Positions 445 to 38,424 of a stretch of 64,000 bases of DNA are shown here, in pieces; within the stretch, counting starts at the first letter, position 1, and each line of letters opens with the position of its first letter. The translations under genes were made by a program, and so were the position numbers. The notes below the pieces were generated by a model. That model was not told where the DNA came from, searched no databases, and saw only the letters and a list, made by a program, of their open reading frames with translations. The stretch covers positions 93,858-157,857 of the IMG/VR virus record IMGVR_UViG_3300027747_004779, one strand, 5' to 3'. Origin of the DNA: a virus.

Positions 445-1891
445 TAATTCTTTTGATGGAGTATTTAATTTTTTCTTTTTCATAAAGTGCGCGACGTTTT
501 TCCATATGAGCTAGGCTATATTTGAAATTATCTGCGATGTCGAATATTATAAGCTTATCTTTATCCTTATGCAAGCGAAGACCTCTTCCAATCGATTGAA
601 CTATCTTTATTTTTGCTTTTCCGCCGCATGCAAAAACAATATAATGTAGGTTTTTAATATTAATACCGGTAGAAAATATTTTTGAAATGGCGACAACAAC
701 AATATCAGTTCTTTTCTCCATAAGCTGTCTAATTTCATCTCTCTCTGCTACTTCGACTTCACCGCGTATAAAATAGCACTGTTTCTCCGGACATTGTTCT
801 TTTATTGTCTTGTATAATAATTCTCCATGCTCAATATAATCAACCAGAATTAAGGAATTGTTTGTAAGCTTACAAACAATTTTGCTTATAACATTATTTC
901 TAAACCCGCTTCTCATTAAAAATCTTTGCTCTTCACGATAAAGATTTGACGAAGATATTACGACGTCTTTAAACGGGTCTTCATTATAATTTAGTTCTAT
1001 GATTTGCACCTGCACGCTACTTACATAACTTTCTAATCGAAGTTCGTAGCTGTTCTTCTCGTATATTACAGGGCCGATTTTACCTATAATATTCCACTGA
1101 TCCATTAAGCTCTCAGGCATTGTACCGGTAAAACCAAATCTAAAAGGTGTTTTTATTTTTTTAAGAATTTTGTTTACTTCATTACCTTTACGTATTTTAT
1201 GTACTTCGTCAACTATTAAGACATCAATTGTTTCAAGCCAAGATAAATCTGTATTTTTACTTTGTAAGATACCTAGATTTGCTATAGTAACGTTGGCTTC
1301 ATTTTTTAATTCATAACTCCCTGTCCATTTTCTAACAGAAAATGGAACGTTATAAGAGAAAAAATCTGAAGATGTCTGTTCTACTAGCCCTAAATCAGGC
1401 ACTATATATAAGCAATTAAATTTTGATCCGTACAATAAAAATAATTTTGTAAGTAAAGAGGCAGCAGTAAGTGTCTTTCCGCCTGCTGTAGCAAGTATGA
1501 TTGTACCGCGGCCAATTGATAAAGCTTTTTTAACAATTTCTTCTTGATAATCTCTCAATGGTAGTTTAAGAGGTATCGGATCGTATGAAAATCTTGTATC
1601 GGATTGAAGATTTTTAACAGGCATAATAACCTCAAGAAGAGATTCGTCTGTCTTTACTTCACCGACATATTGATTGTTATTAAGATATTTTCTTATTTCA
1701 AAATAAAGACCCGGGTCAAATCTACCTGTTGGCGTTATTGCATAAGTTCTTTGCGGTAAAAATCTCCCGTATCTTTTTCTCATAAAAAAAGCAGCTTCAT
1801 TTTTAACAGAAAATGCTTCTCTTATTTCTTCAAATTTATCACCAGAAATAATACCGACCCCTTTATTAGAGTCAAAAGAAAAATTAATCAT
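434..1891 (-). CDS. uvsW: UvsW-like SF2 DNA helicase
   Basis: LRDYQ, ATAGGKT, DEVH, GFTGT and QSIGRGLR motifs; adjacent to uvsY. Confidence 0.93.
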   Translation of the reverse strand: MINFSFDSNKGVGIISGDKFEEIREAFSVKNEAAFFMRKRYGRFLPQRTYAITPTGRFDPGLYFEIRKYLNNNQYVGEVKTDESLLEVIMPVKNLQSDTRFSYDPIPLKLPLRDYQEEIVKKALSIGRGTIILATAGGKTLTAASLLTKLFLLYGSKFNCLYIVPDLGLVEQTSSDFFSYNVPFSVRKWTGSYELKNEANVTIANLGILQSKNTDLSWLETIDVLIVDEVHKIRKGNEVNKILKKIKTPFRFGFTGTMPESLMDQWNIIGKIGPVIYEKNSYELRLESYVSSVQVQIIELNYNEDPFKDVVISSSNLYREEQRFLMRSGFRNNVISKIVCKLTNNSLILVDYIEHGELLYKTIKEQCPEKQCYFIRGEVEVAERDEIRQLMEKRTDIVVVAISKIFSTGINIKNLHYIVFACGGKAKIKIVQSIGRGLRLHKDKDKLIIFDIADNFKYSLAHMEKRRALYEKEKIKYSIKRINEI

Positions 1892-2280
1892 GTTGTCTCA
1901 AGCTTAATAATATCAACAAGATTTTTTATATCATAAGATGTCGAGCTCAACGTCTTTTCTGACTTTTCTAGTAGCTCAATAATAAGCTCTAATTCTTTTA
2001 TTTGCGTATCGATCACAATTACTTCGCTATGCTTTTCTGCAGTACGCTCAACAACCGGTGTAGCTAATTTTACCGGGCTTTGTTCTTGTATCTTATCAAC
2101 TAATGTACGTTTTAATAGCTCGCGCTTCTTACGTAACTCATTGATTTGTAATTTGTGTCTAATGCATCTGCCGGCCCATTTATGCTTAATACCAGGCAGT
2201 TTTAACTGATAATCTTTGAGAATAAGCTCGTCTATTTTTAAGTCGTTCTCAAGTTCTTTTATGTAATCTTCTAGTAGCAT
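1888..2280 (-). CDS. uvsY: UvsY-like recombination mediator
   Basis: Helical protein ending DIKNLVDIIKLE, upstream of uvsW. Start moved to ATG 2280, behind a TTGATT..TATTAT promoter-like site. Confidence 0.7.
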   Translation of the reverse strand: MLLEDYIKELENDLKIDELILKDYQLKLPGIKHKWAGRCIRHKLQINELRKKRELLKRTLVDKIQEQSPVKLATPVVERTAEKHSEVIVIDTQIKELELIIELLEKSEKTLSSTSYDIKNLVDIIKLETT

Positions 2281-2306
2281 TAACTTAAATAATAGTATAC
2301 ATCTAT

Positions 2307-2567
2307 ATGAAATCAATAGGTTTATTCGAATCAAAGTTTTGCAAACTTCTTGAAGAAGATAATGTTGCAGGTGGTACGGGCAGCGCTTTTGGTTCCGGTA
2401 CTTTAGCTCCTATAGGTAATTTTGGAAATCAATTTCCATCACAAAATGATGATGCTTACGCGCCAAATGATGCTAGAGTACCAAAGATATTAGGCACTAA
2501 AAAGAAAAAAAAGAAAAAAGATAAATTCTTAGTTCAGCGCCGTCCGCTTCCTGGTCTTAGCCTTTAA
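2307..2567 (+). CDS. small late protein containing a copy of the major capsid protein N-arm plus a poly-Lys tail
   Basis: IGNFGNQFPSQNDDAYAPNDARVPKIL matches gp23 residues 82-108 at 22/27; TAAATA upstream. Confidence 0.8.
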   Translation: MKSIGLFESKFCKLLEEDNVAGGTGSAFGSGTLAPIGNFGNQFPSQNDDAYAPNDARVPKILGTKKKKKKKDKFLVQRRPLPGLSL

Positions 2568-2589: not shown

Positions 2590-3003
2590 ATGGATCTTGG
2601 ACATTGGTTACTTTCAGAAGGTATTTTTCTAAATGAAGATACATTCGGCTTCATTTATGAAATAACAAATACAGTTACAAGTAAGAAGTATATTGGTAAA
2701 AAGCAGTGTAAATCAAAATTAAAAAGAAAACCATTGAAAGGTAAGAAAAACAAACGTATAGAAATAAAAGAGTCGGATTGGAAAGAATATACTAGCTCAT
2801 CTAATGAATTAAATGAAGATATAAAGAAATACGGTAAAGATAGATTTATATTTAAAATCTTGCGTGCATGCGGATCAAAATGGGAATTGGCATATTTTGA
2901 AATAAAAGAACAATTAGAAAAAAACGTTCTCTTAAGAGATGACTATTATAATGGTATTATTAATGTTCGTATTGGCCGTCCTCCAAAAAGTTTTCTTGAT
3001 TAG
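2590..3003 (+). CDS. GIY-YIG family nuclease-like protein
   Basis: GFIYEITN...KKYIGKK, later E and YYN motifs. Confidence 0.75.
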   Translation: MDLGHWLLSEGIFLNEDTFGFIYEITNTVTSKKYIGKKQCKSKLKRKPLKGKKNKRIEIKESDWKEYTSSSNELNEDIKKYGKDRFIFKILRACGSKWELAYFEIKEQLEKNVLLRDDYYNGIINVRIGRPPKSFLD

Positions 3004-3609: not shown

Positions 3610-4050
3610 ATGACCTTTAATGAACGTATGGCAAAATACAAATCTCTTCTAAATGAACAAGAGCCAGTTCCGCAAGATGCAGCTGCCCCTGCACCGCAAG
3701 CAGAGCAACCTTCAGCACTACCTGCAAAAGCTGCACCAATGGCTGTTCCACCCGAGGGATATGTAGATATGGTGAGATTACTTGCTAAGGCTTTAGTGAT
3801 GAATGTACCTGCAGGGTCGGTTGATACATTGTTTACAAAGCCTATAACAAAAGAGAACGCAATAGAAATGAGAGAGCAAATTGAAAATGCTATTTCAACA
3901 AGCGAGAGTGTAGGTGATAATGAAATGCGAATAACAAATCCTAACGTTGAGAAATTTGTTAATTCAATTAATGAAAATAATTTTATGGCGAAATATAAGC
4001 AAATTCTTGCTATGATGAGAAATTATAGTAACGACCCGAAGTTAAAATGA
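3610..4050 (+). CDS. putative internal head protein
   Basis: ATAAATA at 3598-3604; N-terminus MTFNE..SLLNE followed by a P/A-rich linker. Confidence 0.55.
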   Translation: MTFNERMAKYKSLLNEQEPVPQDAAAPAPQAEQPSALPAKAAPMAVPPEGYVDMVRLLAKALVMNVPAGSVDTLFTKPITKENAIEMREQIENAISTSESVGDNEMRITNPNVEKFVNSINENNFMAKYKQILAMMRNYSNDPKLK

Positions 4051-4051
4051 T

Positions 4052-5158
4052 ATGGAAAAATATCGAAGCTTACAGGATATTTATTTAAAAGAAAGCTTTG
4101 CAAAGTCACTACCCCCTTTGCCTAGACAGACAATTAATTGGTTAATGGAAGCTATAGCTGATGCCCCGCCTCCTGCTCCCAATTCAGCTTATGTACAGCT
4201 TTACGTAAAAGATCCTTCAAAAAATGAACAACAATTTGTAGGTAATATCGATATAGATTATTTTAATAAAGTTGTTAAGCCTGTTTTAAATAGAGGATCA
4301 GAGGGTGCAATTAATGTTAATAAGTTAATAGAAAAAAGACTTAAAGATGCAAATATAACAACTGAGAATTTAAATATAATTTTTGATTATATACAGAACA
4401 CAGGAATAAAAATTTCTTCTGAAAATTTTGCTAAATGTCAGAGTATACTTAAAACTGCGATTGCTTCAGAAACACCTTTTAACATAACTACTGTTTTATC
4501 AGAGAGTTTTGATACACCTGTAGAGAGCATTTCAAATAAATCAAATGAGCTTCTAGGCCTTATGCGCTTAAAAGCACAAAGTGGTTCTGCAACATTTGAA
4601 GATCGTAGTCAGGTTGCGGGTCCTGGTGAAGTTGTTTTGAGCTTCTTTGGTAACGGTAGAAAGCTTATAACATCGAAAAAGAAAACAGAAGCCGCTACAG
4701 CAGAAAAAGGAGATATATCTTTAGGTGAATTGAGAATAGAGCTTAAAGGAACGCAGGGAAGAATATACCCAGCAACAAAAATTACTTATAGTCAGCACGG
4801 TACTCCGGGTGATTTTGCAAAGAAAAACTTACAGAATAATCCATTAGATGTAGTAAAGTATTATACGTTCGGTGAAGAGGGGCTATCAATTGATAGATTC
4901 GATAATGAAATTAATGCTGGCCTGAAGCAAAATATAGATGTAAGACTTTTAGCAACAGGGCTAGCATTAAGAGAGTATCAAGTAAAAAGTGGATTTCATT
5001 ATTATGGTTTTGTAGATTCAAAAACATTTAATTGTGTAGCTTTAACAAGCGCAGATAAAGATATTATCGCTATAGGTAAATTTTATACTTCTTATATTGG
5101 TAATTATTTAAGCTTTGATAGAGGCGGTCATAAATTACCGCCCGCTTTTAAAATATAA
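4052..5158 (+). CDS. late protein with PD-(D/E)xK nuclease-like motif
   Basis: GPGE...KGDI...IELKG; N-terminal YLKE and WLME sites resemble prohead-protease sites. Confidence 0.45.
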   Translation: MEKYRSLQDIYLKESFAKSLPPLPRQTINWLMEAIADAPPPAPNSAYVQLYVKDPSKNEQQFVGNIDIDYFNKVVKPVLNRGSEGAINVNKLIEKRLKDANITTENLNIIFDYIQNTGIKISSENFAKCQSILKTAIASETPFNITTVLSESFDTPVESISNKSNELLGLMRLKAQSGSATFEDRSQVAGPGEVVLSFFGNGRKLITSKKKTEAATAEKGDISLGELRIELKGTQGRIYPATKITYSQHGTPGDFAKKNLQNNPLDVVKYYTFGEEGLSIDRFDNEINAGLKQNIDVRLLATGLALREYQVKSGFHYYGFVDSKTFNCVALTSADKDIIAIGKFYTSYIGNYLSFDRGGHKLPPAFKI

Positions 5159-6378
5159 TGATGACGTTTAAACAGTTTCTGCTTGAAGGCGGAGTTGCTG
5201 GTCATATGGCACATCCTTACGATCTGCCTAATGTTAATACAGGAAGAGATCTTATTAACGTCTTTAATAAAATAGCTACTAGCTTAGTTAAAAAGCCTTC
5301 TGTAGTAAAAATAGATGGTGTTAATGCCTCTATTAAGCTTATTACAAATAAAGAGGGTAATAAAGAGTTTGCTATGGATAGAGGCTCAAATAAGCCAGAA
5401 GATGTAGAGGGTGTTACTATCGATAAGCTCAGCTCACGCTTTCCAGAGGGTCATGGTATGAGAGAAACGGGTAAAGTTGTATTAGAAATTTTTAATCAAG
5501 CTTTACCTTCAATAGAAAAGGAGCTCAAACAATTAAAGATGTGGGATAATAATCGCATTCTCTTTAATATGGAATTTGTTAAAGGTGCGACAAACGTAAT
5601 TGGATATGCAAATAACTTTCTTGCTATTCACGGGTTAAATGAAATAGTTGAGGTTAAAAGCCCTGTTCGAGGAAGTGTAAGTCGTGCATCGCGTGAAATA
5701 CCTTATGATAAAAAAGCTTTACAATCGCTAATAGAAAAAGTCAAACCAATTGCTGAAAAATATAATTTTGACGTGGTAAATGAGTTTGTTGTTACACTAG
5801 CGAATAGGATTGATTTTAATCCAGAATTAAATTCAAAATTTTCTGTTAGTTATGATTCACGTAACATTCAAACAAAACCTTTAAAAGATTGGCTTAGTGA
5901 GGCAAAAAATCCTCGTGCTGATAAGATTAAGCTTGCATCAGGTAAATCTATTAGTGCGGTGAGTTTAGAAAATTATAAGAACATGTCTGCAGGGGTGCCT
6001 TTAGATCATTATCTTGGTAAGAATACAAAGGATTATCAAAAAGCAATTGATGGTGCGGTATTAATACACGCAACAATTTTAATGGGTCAAAAGATAAAAG
6101 ATACTGCAACTTCAGAATTAGGTAATGTAGGTACACAAGAGGGTATTGTTATAAGAGATTCAAGTATATCTGTTAATCCGTTAAAAATAACAGGTAATTT
6201 TTTTACCGGCAAGGAAACAGGTCGTATTAAGCAGCTTAAAACACAAGAGGAAGAAGAGGGTATTAAGGGTCAGCTCTCAAATACTAATAAAGTATTAAAT
6301 TATAAAAACTATCAAACTAACCCCCCTTACGGAAAAGAAGGTGCGCGGTTAACATTAACACCAGGAATGAGTCTATGA
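5158..6378 (+). CDS. RNA/DNA ligase-like nucleotidyltransferase with capsid-targeting-like N-terminus
   Basis: MMTFKQFLLE; KIDG (motif I), MEF (III), EGIVIR (IV), LKITG (V). Confidence 0.55.
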   Translation: MMTFKQFLLEGGVAGHMAHPYDLPNVNTGRDLINVFNKIATSLVKKPSVVKIDGVNASIKLITNKEGNKEFAMDRGSNKPEDVEGVTIDKLSSRFPEGHGMRETGKVVLEIFNQALPSIEKELKQLKMWDNNRILFNMEFVKGATNVIGYANNFLAIHGLNEIVEVKSPVRGSVSRASREIPYDKKALQSLIEKVKPIAEKYNFDVVNEFVVTLANRIDFNPELNSKFSVSYDSRNIQTKPLKDWLSEAKNPRADKIKLASGKSISAVSLENYKNMSAGVPLDHYLGKNTKDYQKAIDGAVLIHATILMGQKIKDTATSELGNVGTQEGIVIRDSSISVNPLKITGNFFTGKETGRIKQLKTQEEEEGIKGQLSNTNKVLNYKNYQTNPPYGKEGARLTLTPGMSL

Positions 6379-7028
6379 AGTTTGATACATTAGTAGAGCA
6401 GATATTACAGCCACAGAAAAATAATCTTATTGTTATTTTTCCCGGGCGGTTTCAACCTTTTCATGTTGGTCATAAAAAGCTTTATGATGCTGCAAAACAG
6501 AAATTTCCTGGTGCCGATTTTTATATAGCCACAGCAGATACAACAGAAAATAGCGCTAAAGAGCCTGATCGTTATCCTTTTAATTTTGCAGAAAAAAAAG
6601 AAATTATTAAAGCGACGGGTATACCGGAAAAAGAAATTGTACTTACAAAACAACCTTACAAGCCTATTGAAATTTTAAAAAACTATGATCAAAATGTTGC
6701 AAAAGTAATTTATATTGTAGGTGAAAAGGATATGAGAGAGGATCCGCGATTTTCCTTTAAGCCTAAAAAAGATGGCTCTGCTCCTTACTTTCAGCCATTC
6801 AAGAGCTTAAATGAGCTCGAACCGTTTAAAGAACAAGGTGGTCATGGCTACATCTATGCACCGGGTACAATACAGTTTAATCTCGGTGGTAAAAATATTA
6901 CTAGTGCAACAGAGCTGAGAAATATGTATAAAGCAGCTGACGAGGCTACAAAAAAGCAGTATATAAAAGACGTTTTAGGTAAATTTGATCCAAAAGTCTA
7001 TAATCTGTTTAACACAAAATTGCGTTAA
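6375..7028 (+). CDS. cytidylyltransferase-like (HxGH) nucleotidyltransferase, NMNAT-like
   Basis: PGRFQPFHVGH, YPFNFAEK, SATELR. Confidence 0.8.
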   Translation: MKFDTLVEQILQPQKNNLIVIFPGRFQPFHVGHKKLYDAAKQKFPGADFYIATADTTENSAKEPDRYPFNFAEKKEIIKATGIPEKEIVLTKQPYKPIEILKNYDQNVAKVIYIVGEKDMREDPRFSFKPKKDGSAPYFQPFKSLNELEPFKEQGGHGYIYAPGTIQFNLGGKNITSATELRNMYKAADEATKKQYIKDVLGKFDPKVYNLFNTKLR

Positions 7029-31360: not shown

Positions 31361-33445
31361 ATGGCTGTATATTATCCATCTTTTGATAATTACAGACGCG
31401 CACAAATTCGTCAAAAACAACTCTTACACACTGATTATAAAACAGTTATACAAGAAGGTATTGGTGTAGGGGCTATTCCAGCAGTAAACACTTCGCCTAC
31501 ACCAACGCCTACCCAAACAATAACGCCTTCATTAACTCCTTCATTAACTAACACACAAACACCGACATTAACACCCACTATTACGCAAACAATAACACCA
31601 ACAACAACACAAACAGCTACACCTTCTGAGACGCCCACGAATACACCAACACAAACACCTACGTTGACTCTTACACAAACACCCACTGTAACCAAGACAT
31701 CTACTATAACACCGACACAAACGCCCACAGTAACACCAACAATAACCCAAACACCAACCATTACACCAAATTTGGTAACGGTATATTATTATTCCGATTC
31801 TACAACATCTTTCAGCATGGATACTACATTAACAAGTACAAGTCGCGATACTAATAAAACTCTGATTGCAGTTAATATTGGGAGTGTAGTAACTAGTATT
31901 GGTACTGCTTTTGTTAATTGTACAGAGCTTACTGATATTATTATTCCTAGCAATGTGACTATTATTGAGTATGGTGCATTCCAAGGCTGTACCGGTCTAA
32001 CTAGTGTTACCATTCCTAGCAGTGTGACGGCCATTGGGTCTTATATGTTTTTTTATTGCACTAACTTAGTTAGTGTATATTTCTTAGGCGATGCTCCTAC
32101 TGGGGGATTTGGAGCGTTTGAAGGTACAACGTGCACAGTGTATTATTGTTCAGATAAAGTTAACTTTACCAACCCATTCCTAGACCGGCCTGCGGTCGCT
32201 ATTACATGTGGCATTAATACACGTACACCTACCCCAACACCTACTTCAACACCAACACCTACACAGACTCTTACTCCCTCAATAGGGTCATCACCTACTC
32301 CTACAAATACACTTACACAGACACCAACACCGTCAGTTACACCCACTATTACTCAAACACCGACAAATACACCTACACAGACACAGACCTCCTCTGTAAC
32401 ACCAACACAAACACCTTCAGTCACACAAACCACCACAGTAACACCTACCAATACCATATCGCCTACACCAACCAACACTTCGACATTAACCCCTACACCC
32501 ACACAGACACCTACTCTAACAGTTACACCCTCTGTAACGCCTACGAATACACAAACATCGACCAATACACCAACCAATACACCTACAGTAACACCTACTG
32601 TCACAGTAACCAACACGCCTACTATGACATTAACACCAACCACTCCACCATATACTATTAGTTATCTCATAGTAGCGGGCGGAGGAGGAGGCTCAAACGG
32701 TGGAGGCGGTGGCGGGGCAGGCGGTGTATTAACATCATCCATACAAGTCTATCCTAATGCAGCATATAGTTTTGTAGTTGGAGCTAGCGCTATAGGTAGA
32801 ACCGATGGTTCAAATATTCTCGATAGTGTAGGAAAAAATAGTATAGCATTTGGCTTAACAGCAATTGGTGGAGGCACATCATATGGTGTGTTAAACGCAG
32901 CAATTAGCGGCGGTAGCGGATCTGGATCTGAAATGTATAATACCATCCAAGGTCAGGGAACATTAGGACAAGGAAACAGTGGCGGTGATGGTGGATATAC
33001 TGGTGGCGGGGGTGGAGCAGGTGCACCAGGAGGATGGAGCATAGGGTTTTCACAACCAGGCGGTAATGGAGGTATAGGTATAATTAACCCTATAGCAGGT
33101 TCAACAGTGGGTCAGCTTTCTGCAGGTAATTATTGGATTGGTGGTGGTGGAGGTGGTGGGTGTAATAATAACAACATTGGAGGTAAAGGTGGCCTAGGTG
33201 GTGGCGGCGTAGGTAAAGCAGACAATACTAAGGGTGGCAATGGTCTTGCAAACACCGGTGGTGGTGGAGGTGGTACATCAGGTTATTCCGGAAGCCCGGG
33301 TGGCGGTAATGGTGGATCAGGTGCTATAGTTTTGTCTATACCTACTTCACGCTATACAGGTATTTTTACAGGAGCACCACAAGTACTTACATATGGTTCA
33401 AATACAATTTTACAGTATTTGACATCCGGAAGCTACACAGCATAA
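31361..33445 (+). CDS. Thr/Pro-repeat virion protein with BspA-type LRR and Gly-rich C-terminal domain
   Basis: Two TPT tracts; IP.SVT.I..AF.GC..L repeats; GGGGG domain ending GSGAIV. Confidence 0.75.
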   Translation: MAVYYPSFDNYRRAQIRQKQLLHTDYKTVIQEGIGVGAIPAVNTSPTPTPTQTITPSLTPSLTNTQTPTLTPTITQTITPTTTQTATPSETPTNTPTQTPTLTLTQTPTVTKTSTITPTQTPTVTPTITQTPTITPNLVTVYYYSDSTTSFSMDTTLTSTSRDTNKTLIAVNIGSVVTSIGTAFVNCTELTDIIIPSNVTIIEYGAFQGCTGLTSVTIPSSVTAIGSYMFFYCTNLVSVYFLGDAPTGGFGAFEGTTCTVYYCSDKVNFTNPFLDRPAVAITCGINTRTPTPTPTSTPTPTQTLTPSIGSSPTPTNTLTQTPTPSVTPTITQTPTNTPTQTQTSSVTPTQTPSVTQTTTVTPTNTISPTPTNTSTLTPTPTQTPTLTVTPSVTPTNTQTSTNTPTNTPTVTPTVTVTNTPTMTLTPTTPPYTISYLIVAGGGGGSNGGGGGGAGGVLTSSIQVYPNAAYSFVVGASAIGRTDGSNILDSVGKNSIAFGLTAIGGGTSYGVLNAAISGGSGSGSEMYNTIQGQGTLGQGNSGGDGGYTGGGGGAGAPGGWSIGFSQPGGNGGIGIINPIAGSTVGQLSAGNYWIGGGGGGGCNNNNIGGKGGLGGGGVGKADNTKGGNGLANTGGGGGGTSGYSGSPGGGNGGSGAIVLSIPTSRYTGIFTGAPQVLTYGSNTILQYLTSGSYTA
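31488..32650 (+). repeat. degenerate Thr-Pro coding repeats (about 31488-31770 and 32218-32650)
   Basis: ACN/CCN-rich tracts encoding TPTxT. Confidence 0.85.
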
Positions 33446-33495: not shown

Positions 33496-34572
33496 ATGGA
33501 CTGTTCTGCAATTACACCTATAACAGCGTTTCAAAGCACTAATCTTAATAGTAAGATAGATACATTTTCACGCCTTGGAGATAGAATTACACGTAGCCTT
33601 GGCGCGCCATTAATTAATCTGGAACTGCATCATGATCAATTATTTGAAAATATTTCTATAGCTTGTGAGATGTTTGCAAGATATGCAGGATATACAGAAG
33701 AAATTTTAGTTTTTGATTCCAATTTATATGTAGACGGTAAGGGAATTAAGATGGATGAGTTGTTTAGTATTACCCCGTTTTTTAATAAAACGATTACACC
33801 ATCTAAAACAGTTTACGCTGCAACATCATCAATTACTAGTAGTGTCTTTACCTCGTCAACTACACTATCAAGCATATATTCCGACGGCATCTTTAACAAT
33901 CAAATCTTAACTACATCAAGCTATCTTAGCGTAATTAATTTTAACGGTACATTAGCACAATATTTTAGTCCATCATCTAATAGTCAAGAGAAGTTCGTTA
34001 ATAGTTTTGACTATGATATAATGGATTATAGAAAAGTAATCGATGTTATTGACTTCGAAGAAGGAAGCTCTGACGGTGTTAATACCTTGTTTACTATTGA
34101 ACAAACACTAGCACAGCAAACATATTTTAGCTATGCGATGGGTAATTATGGTTTTGATCTTATTAGCTGGTATACACTTAAGAATTGGTTGGAAGTACGT
34201 GAAAAATTACTTGCAACGCGTAGGTATTATACTTTCGATGATAGGACTCAGTATCTTGTTTTCTTCCCACCACCTCGTACACCGGGATCAGGAAGCCGTT
34301 TCTACGGTGCAATGCCATGCTATGTTGAAAGACCTTTAAGGGATATTATTAAAGAGCCTTGGGTATATCAGTATGCACTTGCATTAAGCAAAATTTCAGT
34401 AGGCAATGTACGAGGTAAATATACCGGTACAACACTCTTTGGAGGGGGACAAATCAATTATACTGATCTTCTTTCGCAGGGACTTGCAGAAAAAGAAAAG
34501 CTCGAACAAAAGCTCTACGAAGGTGCACCGGGACTAGGCGCTGCAGCGCCACCACAGTTCTTTGTTGGATAA
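33496..34572 (+). CDS. gp13: gp13-like neck protein
   Basis: LGAPLINLEL..QL; WVYQYALA..K...RGKY.G.TL.GG. Confidence 0.85.
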   Translation: MDCSAITPITAFQSTNLNSKIDTFSRLGDRITRSLGAPLINLELHHDQLFENISIACEMFARYAGYTEEILVFDSNLYVDGKGIKMDELFSITPFFNKTITPSKTVYAATSSITSSVFTSSTTLSSIYSDGIFNNQILTTSSYLSVINFNGTLAQYFSPSSNSQEKFVNSFDYDIMDYRKVIDVIDFEEGSSDGVNTLFTIEQTLAQQTYFSYAMGNYGFDLISWYTLKNWLEVREKLLATRRYYTFDDRTQYLVFFPPPRTPGSGSRFYGAMPCYVERPLRDIIKEPWVYQYALALSKISVGNVRGKYTGTTLFGGGQINYTDLLSQGLAEKEKLEQKLYEGAPGLGAAAPPQFFVG

Positions 34573-35030
34573 TGATTCCGTTAAACAAAACAGACAAATA
34601 TAGACAAGGTCTTTTTAGACCGAGAAATGTATCAAAATACGTTGGACGTAATCCGCCAGTTTATAGATCGGGTTGGGAATTAAAGTTTTTTAGATGGTGT
34701 GATGAAAATACTAATGTCCTTGAATGGGCTAGTGAAGCAATTGTTATACCGTATATTAACCCTATTGATGGTAAAGCACATAGATATATTACCGATGGTG
34801 TTGTTGTAATAAAAGAAGCGGATAAGGTTAGTAAATATATTATAGAAATTAAACCAAGCGATCAGTTATTACAGCCTGTTGCCGGAAAAAAGAAGAATAG
34901 TACTGTCATTTATGAGAATAAACGATATATACAGAATATGGCTAAGTGGAAAGCTGCTAAAACATGGTGTGACAAAAGAAATTACAAATTCTTAATTTTG
35001 ACAGAAAAGGAATTAGGTCTAAATAAATAG
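34572..35030 (+). CDS. gp4: gp4-like head completion nuclease
   Basis: YRSGWE, WCD, WASE..IPY, EIKP, KW.AA, LTE. Confidence 0.9.
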   Translation: MIPLNKTDKYRQGLFRPRNVSKYVGRNPPVYRSGWELKFFRWCDENTNVLEWASEAIVIPYINPIDGKAHRYITDGVVVIKEADKVSKYIIEIKPSDQLLQPVAGKKKNSTVIYENKRYIQNMAKWKAAKTWCDKRNYKFLILTEKELGLNK

Positions 35031-35053: not shown

Positions 35054-35725
35054 ATGGCTTTACGTCTATTAGTCGAAACACCGGCTCCGGAAGAGCAATT
35101 TGAATATATACTAGAAGAAAAAAATTCTAAAGAGCCAGCACGTCTTTGTATTCAAGGACCTTACATGGTCTGTAATGAAGTAAATAAAAATCAAAGAATT
35201 TATGAAAAGTCAGATATGGAGCGCGAAGTTAATCGTTACATTAAAGAGATGGTTAATTCTAAGCGCGCCATGGGTGAATTAAATCATCCTACATCTGCTG
35301 AAGTTAATCTCGAAAGAGCTTGTCATATAGTAACTAATCTAAAGCTAGAAGGTAATTATGTTATCGGTAAGTCACAAGTGCTCTCTACACCGATGGGACA
35401 AATTGTTCGCTCTCTTATTAATGACGGGGTTAAAGTTGGTATGTCAAGCCGCGCTCTTGGTAAGTTAAACGAAGAAGCTGGCGGTGTTAATCGCGTTACC
35501 GATATGCGCCTTATTGCTGTTGATTGTGTTGCAGATCCATCGTGCCCCAAAGCCTTTGTTAACGGTATTCTTGAGAGTAAGCAGTATGTACTCGCTGCCG
35601 ATGGCCAGCTAGAAGAAGTATTTGAGCGTTTTGAGAATGCACTTAAAAATTTACCTGGTAAGGAAATACAAACATATCTTAAAGAGCAAATTCTTTCTTT
35701 CTTTAGGCATTTAAAGACTAACTAA
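35054..35725 (+). CDS. gp21: prohead core protease
   Basis: NKNQRIY, GELNHP, GMSSRALG, VADPS. Confidence 0.95.
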   Translation: MALRLLVETPAPEEQFEYILEEKNSKEPARLCIQGPYMVCNEVNKNQRIYEKSDMEREVNRYIKEMVNSKRAMGELNHPTSAEVNLERACHIVTNLKLEGNYVIGKSQVLSTPMGQIVRSLINDGVKVGMSSRALGKLNEEAGGVNRVTDMRLIAVDCVADPSCPKAFVNGILESKQYVLAADGQLEEVFERFENALKNLPGKEIQTYLKEQILSFFRHLKTN

Positions 35726-35772
35726 ATATGAAAAAAGAGAAGAAAACACTCAAAGGTAAGATAAATAATAAT

Positions 35773-35943
35773 ATGGCCAAGAAAGCTGCTAAAAGCAAGA
35801 TTAATGAAAGTTCAGAAATAGTTAAGTTTTTACGCTCAATTTCTCAAAAAAATTATTCCGAGGCCAATAAATATTTACAGAACGTTATCGAATCGAAGCT
35901 TAAAGCTAAGATGGCTAACGCTCTAAAAGAAAACATTTTTTAA
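35773..35943 (+). CDS. small prohead core protein (gp67/68-like)
   Basis: ATG 5 nt after ATAAATA; lies between protease and scaffold. Confidence 0.5.
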   Translation: MAKKAAKSKINESSEIVKFLRSISQKNYSEANKYLQNVIESKLKAKMANALKENIF

Positions 35944-35944
35944 T

Positions 35945-36835
35945 ATGGAAAACAACAACAATATATCAAGCGTTCTTAGAGAAGCAACCAAAGACATTCT
36001 TACAGAGGATGTTCTTAAGGAAATCGAAGCCGCTTTTAATAGTACAGTAAATGAAAGAGTACAATTACATGTTGAGAAAGCTTTATCAGAACAAGATGCT
36101 GATTATTCAAAGAAGCTCGAAACACTTGTTGAAGCTATCGATACTGATCATACAGATAAGCTCAAAAAAGTTGTTGAAGCTATTGATGCTGATCGCGCTG
36201 AGAAGCTTAAGACTGTTGTTGAAAAATACGAGGCAGCGCTAAACAAAGAAGCCGCTGCATTTAAATCTTCTATGGTAGACAAAGTAAGTAAGTTCCTCGA
36301 TCTTTATATTGATGAGAAATTACCTACTACTGCTATTAATGAAGCTGTGAAGAACAAGAGAGCTGTTGGGCTTCTCGAAGATCTTCGCAAGGTTCTTTCT
36401 GTTGACATGATTCTCGCGAAAGATAATATTCGTGATGCTATTGTTGATGGAAAGACAAAAATTGATGAAGCTGCTAGTCAGCTTGAAGCCGCTAATAAGC
36501 AGGTTACAAAGTTAACTGAAGAGAATAAGAAGTTAACTTCTAAGATTGTCTTAGAAGAAAAGATTTCTAATCTCGATGAAGACGAAAAGACTTATATGAA
36601 GAAAATGCTTAATGGTAAGTCTGCAGAATTCATTAAAGAAAACTTTGATTACACACTCAATTTATTTGAGAAAACTGAAGAAGAGCGGCTTTCGAATCTT
36701 AAAACAGAAGCCGTAACAGAATCTGTATCAACCACAGTTGATAGACCTGTTATTGAAGAGAAGGTTTCTGAGCCCGTTAATGAAGAAGTTGCCCCTGCGT
36801 TTGGCCTCTACATGAGCGAGCTTAAAAAATACTAA
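35945..36835 (+). CDS. gp22: prohead scaffolding protein
   Basis: Acidic coiled coil directly upstream of the capsid gene; ends YMSELKKY. Confidence 0.85.
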   Translation: MENNNNISSVLREATKDILTEDVLKEIEAAFNSTVNERVQLHVEKALSEQDADYSKKLETLVEAIDTDHTDKLKKVVEAIDADRAEKLKTVVEKYEAALNKEAAAFKSSMVDKVSKFLDLYIDEKLPTTAINEAVKNKRAVGLLEDLRKVLSVDMILAKDNIRDAIVDGKTKIDEAASQLEAANKQVTKLTEENKKLTSKIVLEEKISNLDEDEKTYMKKMLNGKSAEFIKENFDYTLNLFEKTEEERLSNLKTEAVTESVSTTVDRPVIEEKVSEPVNEEVAPAFGLYMSELKKY

Positions 36836-36918: not shown

Positions 36919-38424
36919 ATGTCAAAACAAATTCGTCCTACACAGGCTTACATCGATGAGTCTCGCGCGAAAGTATTGCTCGAAAAATGGGGTCCAGTAT
37001 TGGATTACTCTTCGAACAATGTTGCCGCGATTGAAGATGATCACACTCGTTTGAACACCGCCATCCTTTTGGAAAACCAAGAGAAGTGGTGTTTCGAGGC
37101 AAGCAATATTGCTGGAAGTTCAAGTTCTGTTTTCAATGCTACAGGCACTGGTAACCCCAATGTCGGTAACTACGGAAATCAGTTCCCTTCCCAGAATGAT
37201 AGCGCTTATGCTCCTAACGATTCGCGTCTTCCGAAGATTCTAATCCCGATGATCCGCCGTACGTTCCCTGAGTTGATTACTAACGAAATCGTTGGTGTTC
37301 AGCCCATGAGCGGTCCTGTAGGTCTCGCTTTTGCTCTACGTTATAAGTACGAAGGTTCTGCTCTCGGTGCTACTAATGCAAAAGGTCTTGATGGCTCTCT
37401 AGCCTCAGGAGCTCTCGCTGGTGGTCCTCAGAGTCAGTCCTCTGGTGCCGAATTAGGTTATCAATACCTCGATTCACGCTTTACTGGCGTTTCTTCTGCT
37501 GCCCTCTCGGGTAACAGTTTCTTCTCCGTACAGGCTCAGGATCAAGGTGTTGCTCAGTTGCTAGCCAACTTTGAGTTAACCTCAAACATTCCCCAGGTCG
37601 TAGTTAGCTTCGAAAAGACAGCCGTTGAGGCTGGTACTCGTAGGCTCGCCGCCCGCTGGTCTGTTGAACTCGAGCAGGATCTTAAGAACATGAACGGCAT
37701 TGATATCGATACCGAACTCACCAACGCTATGTCGTATGAGTTGCAGGCCGAAATCGACCGTGAAATGATCATTCGTATGATCCAGACAGCCCTAAACGCT
37801 GGCTTAGGAACAGGCTTCTCAGTCTGGTCCCCTGCCTCCGCAGACGGCCGTTGGCTCGTTGAGCGCAATCGCGACTTCTATCAGAGACTAATTGTTGAAG
37901 CTAACAGAATTGCTGTCCGTAACCGCCGTGGTTCGGCTAATTTCATCGTCGCTACACCTCGTGTATGCGCAATCCTTGAAATGTTGCCCGAATTCCAGTG
38001 GGTACCGGTCCAGGGTAATGTTAACACCCAACCCGTTGGCGTCGCCAAGGTAGGTTCACTTGCTGGTCGTTTTAACGTATACCGCGATACACGTACAGAA
38101 GCACAGGCTGAAGCTAACGCCGGAGGAAACTTCGGTGGTAACGGTGGGTTCCCCGCTGGTACAACACGCACAACCCGTCTCGAGTACGCTCTCCTTGGTT
38201 ACAAGGGTCCGGAATTCTACGACACTGGTATCATCTATTGTCCGTATATTCCGGTAATGGTTCAGAGAACTATTGGTCCTAATGATTTTGCTCCTCGTGT
38301 TGGTCTATTAACCCGTTATGGCGTTGTAGATAACATCTTTGGTGCAAATCTTTACTACCACGTAATTATCTTGACCGGTCTCGGTGTTGCGTTTACACCC
38401 GGCACACAATCAGTCTACTTCTAA
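36919..38424 (+). CDS. gp23: major capsid protein
   Basis: LLEKW.PVL, LLENQ, GVQPMSGPVGLAFALR, ELEQDLK, YCPYIP, TRYG. Confidence 0.97.
   Translation: MSKQIRPTQAYIDESRAKVLLEKWGPVLDYSSNNVAAIEDDHTRLNTAILLENQEKWCFEASNIAGSSSSVFNATGTGNPNVGNYGNQFPSQNDSAYAPNDSRLPKILIPMIRRTFPELITNEIVGVQPMSGPVGLAFALRYKYEGSALGATNAKGLDGSLASGALAGGPQSQSSGAELGYQYLDSRFTGVSSAALSGNSFFSVQAQDQGVAQLLANFELTSNIPQVVVSFEKTAVEAGTRRLAARWSVELEQDLKNMNGIDIDTELTNAMSYELQAEIDREMIIRMIQTALNAGLGTGFSVWSPASADGRWLVERNRDFYQRLIVEANRIAVRNRRGSANFIVATPRVCAILEMLPEFQWVPVQGNVNTQPVGVAKVGSLAGRFNVYRDTRTEAQAEANAGGNFGGNGGFPAGTTRTTRLEYALLGYKGPEFYDTGIIYCPYIPVMVQRTIGPNDFAPRVGLLTRYGVVDNIFGANLYYHVIILTGLGVAFTPGTQSVYF

Follow-up and report, generated by a model that had tools for sequence, protein, structure and literature searches.

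A stand-alone copy of the N-terminal segment of gp23 encoded by a small gene beside uvsY in a T4-type phage

The window analyzed here (the whole stretch of 64,000 nucleotides from an IMG/VR virus record) holds, beside uvsY, a small gene whose product begins with a short leader, continues as a copy of the N-terminal segment of the phage's own major capsid protein, gp23, and carries a run of lysines. It is a genuine gene, widely distributed and under selection, and a late-type promoter motif precedes it. We read it, tentatively and with a little less than even confidence, as encoding a minor head protein built like the product of T4 gene 61.1, which would be loaded by its leader, trimmed by a protease and active at the sites where the N-terminus of gp23 docks. 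As T4 gene 61.1 shares this design, the mini-protein probably has a small part in head assembly that has so far been missed.

Results

Match of the Mini-Protein to gp23

The mini-protein aligns over residues 8-62 with residues 54-108 of the gp23 encoded in the same window (33/57 identities, E=3e-19, BLASTP), and a profile-profile comparison of its family with gp23 by hhalign gives E=5e-22. The core of the match had been singled out in a first-pass annotation, made from the letters alone, as 22 identical residues out of 27; we reproduced this count for positions 2412-2492 against 37162-37242, at a nucleotide identity of 68%. Different codons are used at 14 of the 22 identical residues, and dN/dS is about 0.1-0.3, which bears out the earlier claim that the match is held by selection at the protein level and does not stem from a recent DNA duplication. 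The similarity was also said to reach back over a protease site, and the alignment indeed crosses a hydrophobic-x-Glu motif in both proteins.

The C-terminal end of the mini-protein lies approximately where the Pfam domain of gp23 starts (residue 105). The protein gives no match to the Gp23 profile PF07068 or to the HK97-type fold body, nor to any Pfam or PHROG family at E<=0.01, and its matches in the ESM Atlas are unnamed viral clusters only. Among GenBank phages, neither the small gene nor its region has a DNA or protein match, and the cultured gp23 closest to that of the window is about 32% identical. The window gp23 aligns with the T4 gp23 chains 6uzc and 5vf3 across the region that is copied (phmmer). 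The coordinates of the small gene, its parts and the relevant head genes are collected in Table 1.

Table 1. Positions of the small gene, its neighbors and the head genes within the window
Feature	Position	Strand	Remarks
uvsY	1888..2280	-	Pfam UvsY, phrog_231; divergent neighbor
Late-type promoter-like motif TAAATAATA	2286..2294	+	12 nt before the ATG of the mini-protein
Mini-protein ORF	2307..2567	+	ATG start, 86 aa, reading frame open
Leader, residues 1-17	2307..2357	+	amphipathic, ends Leu-Leu-Glu-Glu; resembles capsid-targeting sequence; candidate prohead-protease site
Residues 18-62, N-fist equivalent copied from mature gp23 (its first 48 residues)	2358..2492	+	BLASTP, hhalign
Gly-Thr linker and Lys run, residues 63-72	2493..2522	+	seven Lys at 65-71
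Copy of the gp23 N-arm start, residues 73-86 and stop codon	2523..2567	+	VQRRPLPGL against gp23 MIRRTFPEL
gp21-type prohead serine protease	35054..35725	+	Pfam PF03420 Peptidase_S77, 8.8e-34
gp22-type scaffolding protein	35945..36835	+	Pfam T4_CASP 5.6e-6, just below curated cut-off; pI 4.9
gp23 major capsid protein, template of the copy	36919..38424	+	Pfam PF07068 (Gp23) 5e-88
gp23 candidate cleavage after E60	37096-37098	+	last Glu before E118
gp23 mature N-terminal extension, A61-L108	37099-37242	+	
gp23 N-arm start, I109-L119	37243-37275	+	

Architecture of the Mini-Protein

In T4, residues 66-91 of gp23 form the 'N-fist', which is followed by an extended N-arm (PMC9546572, PMC9958956). 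Residues 18-62 of the mini-protein correspond to gp23 61-108, and the piece at residues 73-86 resembles gp23 111-119. The first-pass annotation had described a string of seven lysines, KKKKKKK, in place of the capsid fold. The Lys run is there, but the copy resumes beyond it into the start of the N-arm, which indicates that the run is an insertion or an appendix whose position varies. The copy thus covers the N-terminal extension of gp23 in full.

The N-arm register after the Lys run is the one chosen by hhalign, and the choice is a weak one (P=0.025), but relatives leave little doubt about it. The mimic of the type found in G001, a complete relative, aligns through VQRR onto gp23 MIRR (BLASTP), and two further family members carry a near-exact N-arm piece: P0185 ends ...PIIRRTLPETL, and P0208 reads PKVITPMMRRTFPETIL followed by poly-Lys. 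The Lys run precedes the N-arm piece in the window lineage and follows it in others, the basic run being the last element in the G001 lineage. Among the 114 representative clusters that have the core, 109 show a run of at least three Lys/Arg within 60 residues past it. The core itself, GNQFPSQND..YAPGD.R.PK.L, is nearly invariant across the family, and the positions conserved in the mini-protein are those conserved in gp23. The predicted mature peptide has a pI of 10.2 and a charge of +6.8, with a tail of +8.8 and an acidic N-fist part.

At the DNA level, the Lys run (2497-2520, + strand) is A-rich and includes an A8 stretch. Judged by the reading frames, a one-base slip at A8 would bring in a stop after 3-6 codons, giving a form that lacks the N-arm piece and would resemble the short tails of T4 and of the G001 type.

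Leader and Head Genes

The site in the leader aligns with Cys58-Phe59-Glu60 of gp23, which is followed there by Ala-Ser-Asn-Ile-Ala-Gly. All 40 family members compared have a hydrophobic-x-Glu at position 10-17, located 0-4 residues before the Asn-Val-Ala-Gly-Gly block, and the window protein has no Glu beyond residue 17. In T4, the propeptides of internal proteins are 10-19 residues long and end in L/I-x-E; they load the protein into the scaffolding core and are removed by gp21 (PMC9026906, PMC9958956), which cuts after L/I-x-E (PMC9026906). The window leader, with 17 residues and Leu-Leu-Glu-Glu at its end, agrees with this description (PMC9026906). One lineage of the family has a 10-residue leader, MITFNQFCSE, that is close to the T4 capsid-targeting sequence (CTS) MKTYQEFIAE (PMC8442874, PMC9026906).

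Cleavage of gp23 and of the mini-protein alike would be expected from the gp21-type protease of the window, and within the prohead the copied segment might dock onto the gp22-type scaffolding protein. Neither the whole record (G000) nor the complete relative G001 yielded a gp24-type vertex paralogue of gp23; the only gp23 matches in the two are gp23 itself and the small mimic. The pentons are presumably made of gp23.

Several other genes of the head region deserve mention. Between the protease and scaffold genes lies an ORF (35728-35943, + strand) for a Lys-rich, helical protein of 71 aa with no family match, possibly a small core protein in a position like that of T4 67/68 upstream of 21. A protein with a TnsA-like endonuclease N-terminal domain (34572-35030, + strand; Pfam PF08722, 4e-20) is encoded inside the head module, directly 5' of the gp21 gene. 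The 694-aa product of an ORF directly after the portal gene (31361-33445, + strand) has extended tracts of Thr-Pro repeats and is rich in Gly in its C-terminal part; TAAATAATA precedes this ORF.

Leaders like the T4 CTS are also found elsewhere. Several proteins encoded in window 3610-7028 (+ strand) have them; ORF 5158 begins MMTFKQFLLE, followed by Gly-Gly-Val-Ala-Gly. An 88-aa protein starts with the CTS-like MISFKEFYLE, and in the same record two ORFs with CTS-like leaders lie about 91-92 kb before the start of the window. These leaders suggest a set of head-loaded proteins that would include a ligase-like and a cytidylyltransferase-like enzyme. For the mini-protein, such neighbors lend head-loading circumstantial support.

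Spread and Selection

A word-indexed search returned 22 clusters (90% identity) of proteins of 81-89 residues, which are 51-94% identical and of which none has a Pfam domain or an informative name. Scans of IMG/VR gave 13 and then 80 loci, from which 40 distinct DNA versions were extracted. An HMM search of 1.8 billion representative proteins yielded 158 clusters at 50% identity (E<=0.001); most of these proteins measure 55-100 residues, and in the few that exceed this length the module occupies one end. Homologues in relatives, whose existence the first-pass annotation had left for later searches, are therefore plentiful. The pooled pairwise dN/dS over the 40 versions is 0.29, the same value as for the capsid-like part alone, and falls to 0.10-0.18 among the closest relatives of the window gene; none of these values is near the neutral value of 1. 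Even members that share no more than about 45% identity keep the order of leader, copy and basic run.

In about 91 of the 101 representative clusters, the protein starts with a leader that is 8 or more residues long and contains hydrophobic-x-Glu, and about 10 of the 101 have no leader. The leaderless P0197, for example, begins Met-Glu-Asp-Met-Val-Ala-Gly-Gly. Such members start at the predicted mature end, which supports the placement of the cleavage site, and their existence shows the exposed copy and the basic run to be the essential module. Three longer relatives (P0232, P0192 and P0155; 166-286 aa) have mimic and Lys run at their N-terminus. After the Lys run, they continue with a second Val-Gln-x-Arg-Asn-Phe-Pro piece, an Ala/Gly/Lys-rich stretch or an extra C-terminal domain, indicating that the module is reused at the head of larger proteins.

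Locus and Promoter-Like Motif

The TAAATA reported upstream of the ORF is present and forms part of the motif TAAATAATA (Table 1). The window contains 17 copies of this motif, 14 of them on the + strand, against 5.3 expected, and none of 100 shuffles reached 17. Copies are also located a few bases 5' of ORF 3610, ORF 31361, ORF 33496 and the gp21 gene. From this position and the resemblance to TATAAATA, we infer that TAAATAATA is probably this phage's version of the T4 late promoter.

In 40/40 loci, the upstream neighbor of the small gene is uvsY, in divergent orientation. On the other side, 22 nt downstream of the ORF in the window, a SegE-like GIY-YIG gene follows; when the loci were screened with a simple motif test, only 23/37 showed such a gene in this place. 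Its product in the window (2590-3003, + strand; 137 aa, Pfam PF19835, 4e-31) has no DNA-binding extension. Relatives of this protein occur in 338 GenBank phage records (tblastn), mostly of cyanomyophages but also of Melnitz and the Sinorhizobium phiM12 type, where they are often mis-annotated as 'NAD synthetase' (phrog_447). The impression is one of a conserved nuclease that may have been domesticated, and not of a mobile homing gene.

Covariation with the Cognate gp23

If the copy works together with gp23, the two proteins might be expected to co-vary, a test that the first-pass annotation had proposed. Such covariation is clear between T4, the Prochlorococcus phage P-HM1 and the window clade, but it is faint within the clade. 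In an all-against-all comparison, mimics match the gp23 of their own lineage with E values of 1e-8 (T4), 1e-12 (P-HM1), 2e-18 (window) and 2.5e-7 (G001), whereas matches between the families of T4, P-HM1 and the window clade are at 0.01 or worse and non-collinear. The window and G001 lineages cross-match each other's gp23. The fidelity of mimics to their own gp23 across deep lineages speaks for a copy that acts in concert with the cognate gp23 or one of its partners.

Within the clade, we compared the 11 genomes having both a mimic and gp23. The mimics are 52% identical to their own gp23 and 50% identical to the other gp23s (permutation p=0.007, with shared ancestry uncorrected), and the cognate gp23 ranks first in only 4 of the 11 genomes. 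Both proteins keep the invariant core throughout the clade, and in the lineage of G001 and G003 both have drifted from the consensus, each in a different manner. Judging from these comparisons, what is common within the clade is a shared conserved motif and not tight tracking. In the cultured relative Melnitz, whose N-fist is short, a second copy of its own gp23 N-terminus was not found.

Discussion

Proposed Role

The behavior of the copied segment in T4 offers a framework for the role of the mini-protein. In the unexpanded head, residues 66-105 of T4 gp23 are disordered and lie on the inner side, where they probably abut the scaffolding core, and the head-length mutations A66D, A94V and G97S fall among them; on expansion, the segment goes to the outer surface as N-fist and N-arm, where it contacts four subunits and helps to form the Soc site (PMC9546572, PMC9958956). 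The placement of the gp23 N-terminal region against the scaffolding core is described in PMC9546572. Around the T4 portal, the inter-capsomer arrangement of the N-fists is broken, and those of five subunits are disordered (PMC7136217).

We propose that the leader would take the mini-protein into the prohead core, as the CTS does for the internal proteins of T4, and that the gp21-type protease would cut it after Glu16 or Glu17, the position homologous to gp23 Glu60. If the gp21 homologue does cut after Glu, mature gp23 and the mature mini-protein would both keep the shared segment. The released peptide of about 70 residues could then occupy sites used by the N-terminal segment of gp23 itself. 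The earliest of these would be at the shell/scaffold interface inside the prohead, where the T4 segment influences head length; after expansion, N-fist/N-arm lattice sites may also become occupied. The basic run, which gives the mature peptide a net charge of about +7, might contact the acidic scaffold (pI 4.9) or, at a later stage, packaged DNA.

Some of the evidence pulls in the other direction. Leader loading is not universal, as about 10 of the 101 clusters and the P-HM1 protein PHM1_169 have no leader. The T4 gene 61.1 is part of the prereplicative primase operon and has no late promoter directly upstream, whereas the window gene lies beside uvsY and behind a late-type motif; the T4 setting argues against a typical structural gene. 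A 10-residue targeting sequence suffices for packaging in T4, so the leader leaves the retention of the N-fist copy unexplained. The marginal tracking within the clade (52% against 50%; 4 of 11) also speaks against the proposed role. A complex prediction for two copies of gp23(109-501) with the mature peptide (18-86), run without controls, returned a score of 0.00, with the peptide alone predicted at low confidence, and counts neither in favor of binding nor against it.

Alternative Explanations

A related but unlikely possibility, the one put forward in the first-pass annotation, is that the mature peptide serves as a free N-fist/N-arm on the expanded gp23 lattice wherever a neighbor donor is missing, e.g., at the portal vertex, with the Lys run holding DNA or an acidic patch. 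The copy covers exactly those parts of gp23 that make the inter-capsomer contacts in T4, where the N-fist touches four subunits (PMC9958956), and the disordered N-fists at the T4 portal (PMC7136217) would offer such sites. The agreement between the conserved positions of mini-protein and gp23 fits this explanation, as does the failure to find a gp24 paralogue in G000 or the complete G001. However, N-fist and N-arm of T4 end on the outer surface, while a peptide loaded by its leader would be inside. That the Lys run comes before the N-arm piece in some lineages and after it in others argues against one fixed geometry. The published T4 structures consulted describe no such density, those of the capsid and portal vertex reporting no bound extra peptide of this type, which counts against the preferred reading as well. 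T4 encodes gp61.1 although it has gp24, so that a missing vertex protein does not account for the mimic, and a mimic that replaces missing gp24 was rejected as a general explanation on the same ground.

[quoted passage not shown] A decoy would have to follow the capsid sequence of the phage that encodes it, as these copies do, T4 61.1 is found among early/middle genes, and some members are leaderless; the longest copies (P0208) even reach the first residues of the region corresponding to the T4 Gol peptide, which we take to lie at about gp23 residues 93-122. A faithful copy, on the other hand, would be expected to trigger a sensor and not to block it, and we know of no defense system that senses this segment of gp23. 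The late-type motif common to head genes and the protease-type site with a targeting-like leader in about 90% of clusters also sit poorly with action in the cytoplasm. We consider it improbable, too, that the mini-protein is a competitive substrate or timer of the prohead protease, which would share the cleavage site and a downstream exosite with gp23 and pace its maturation. The similarity to gp23 does span both sides of the scissile bond, and hydrophobic-x-Glu followed within 1-3 residues by (V/I/Q/T)(A/S)G occurs in only four proteins genome-wide, three of which are gp23, the mini-protein and ORF 5158; yet pacing leaves unexplained the members without leader and site, the conserved Lys run and an N-arm piece far from the site. 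Hardly credible, finally, is a non-functional relic, i.e., a (foreign) gene 23 fragment brought in by the adjacent GIY-YIG homing-endonuclease-like gene. That gene is indeed close by, and the synonymous divergence could predate the event if both copies were then full-length genes in different phages. Against this stand the dN/dS over 40 versions, an architecture retained at 45% identity, the 158 clusters and a GIY-YIG gene that is detected in part of the loci only, while uvsY is always adjacent. Pseudogene status and homing-endonuclease hitch-hiking were ruled out by this selection and synteny.

Significance

The preferred reading is that of a leader-loaded accessory head protein. Few assembly pathways in biology have been studied as thoroughly as that of the T4 head, yet the placement of proteins at the shell/scaffold interface of T4 and the setting of head length are still called unresolved (PMC9958956, PMC9546572). 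A free-standing, selected copy of the very gp23 segment that carries the length mutations and later locks capsomers would provide a new handle on head assembly, and its role is directly testable in T4, since gene 61.1 has the same design. Scoring of 8000 candidates gave 7378 gp23 relatives at E<=1e-20. With the window clade so abundant in metagenomes, the small gene is among the commoner unannotated phage genes there.

A bolder and more doubtful generalization would be that T4-type phages at large, including T4, the cyanophages and the uncultured window clade, carry an overlooked head-assembly component in the form of a free N-fist/N-arm copy. Such a component might set head geometry or seal and stabilize the shell by competing with or replacing gp23 N-termini, either at the scaffold interface or at lattice sites lacking a donor, e.g., at the portal.

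Comparison with Known Systems

The closest counterpart in design is the T4 gene 61.1 product, a protein of 54 aa (NP_049649.1, phrog_1823) annotated as 'hypothetical protein', with its parts in the same order as in the window protein: leader, gp23 copy and Lys run. Its 10-residue leader is close to the T4 CTS and ends in Ile-Lys-Glu, followed by Asp-Met-Val-Ala-Gly. Residues 2-38 match T4 gp23 57-93, that is, the cleavage site and N-fist, at 17/37 (E=6e-9), and Pro-Lys-Lys-Lys-Lys comes next. The leader junction, Asp/Glu-(Asn/Met)-Val-Ala-Gly, aligns with that of the window protein at E=0.004 (BLASTP). Against phrog_1823, however, the window protein reaches E=3.2, and this only over the Pro-Lys/Lys-run stretch, compared with 3.1e-33 for gp61.1 itself. 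On this evidence the window protein is of the T4 gene 61.1 type by design and not a detectable member of phrog_1823 by sequence. T4 gp61.1 is also shorter and has no N-arm (RR) piece; relative to it, an extension into the N-arm is what the window protein, as aligned here, adds.

The first-pass annotation knew of no described equivalent. As to the design this was wrong, because T4 gene 61.1 is built alike, though it is unstudied: we found no functional study of gp61.1 or of such an N-fist copy in the literature, where gp61.1 is mentioned in passing only. Nor did we meet, in the literature searched, a description of any phage that encodes the N-arm of its capsid protein a second time as a free protein.

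A search of P-HM1 with its own gp23 N-terminus uncovered PHM1_169, a hypothetical protein of 234 aa (phrog_4187). Its start copies the N-terminus of the mature gp23 of P-HM1 (gp23 residues 53-85) at 64% identity (E=1e-9) and is followed by Lys-Arg-Arg and a basic run. PHM1_169 differs from the window protein in that it has no leader, beginning about 5 residues before the copy, which here forms the N-terminus of a long Lys/Glu-rich protein. Its gene also has another genomic setting, close to one annotated as 'head protein'.

With gp23 itself, the window protein shares the N-fist/N-arm segment (66-105 in T4, with PF07068 beginning just after), which it copies from its own gp23 together with the maturation site. 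It differs from gp23 in having no HK97-fold body and in the Lys run inserted between N-fist and N-arm piece.

[quoted passage not shown] Sequence similarity to them is limited to the leader, and packaging of the window protein is a prediction. They carry their own folded or anti-restriction cargo, whereas the cargo of the window protein is a capsid copy. A further likeness, one of function and drawn from the literature alone, links the role proposed here to T4 gp67 and gp68. These are small, gp21-processed parts of the core to which a role in the size and shape of the head is ascribed (PMC9026906). Neither is known to contain a copy of gp23. Taken by its parts, the window protein would belong with the leader-bearing small basic head proteins of T4-type phages, as a putative variant whose cargo is a copy of the capsid protein.
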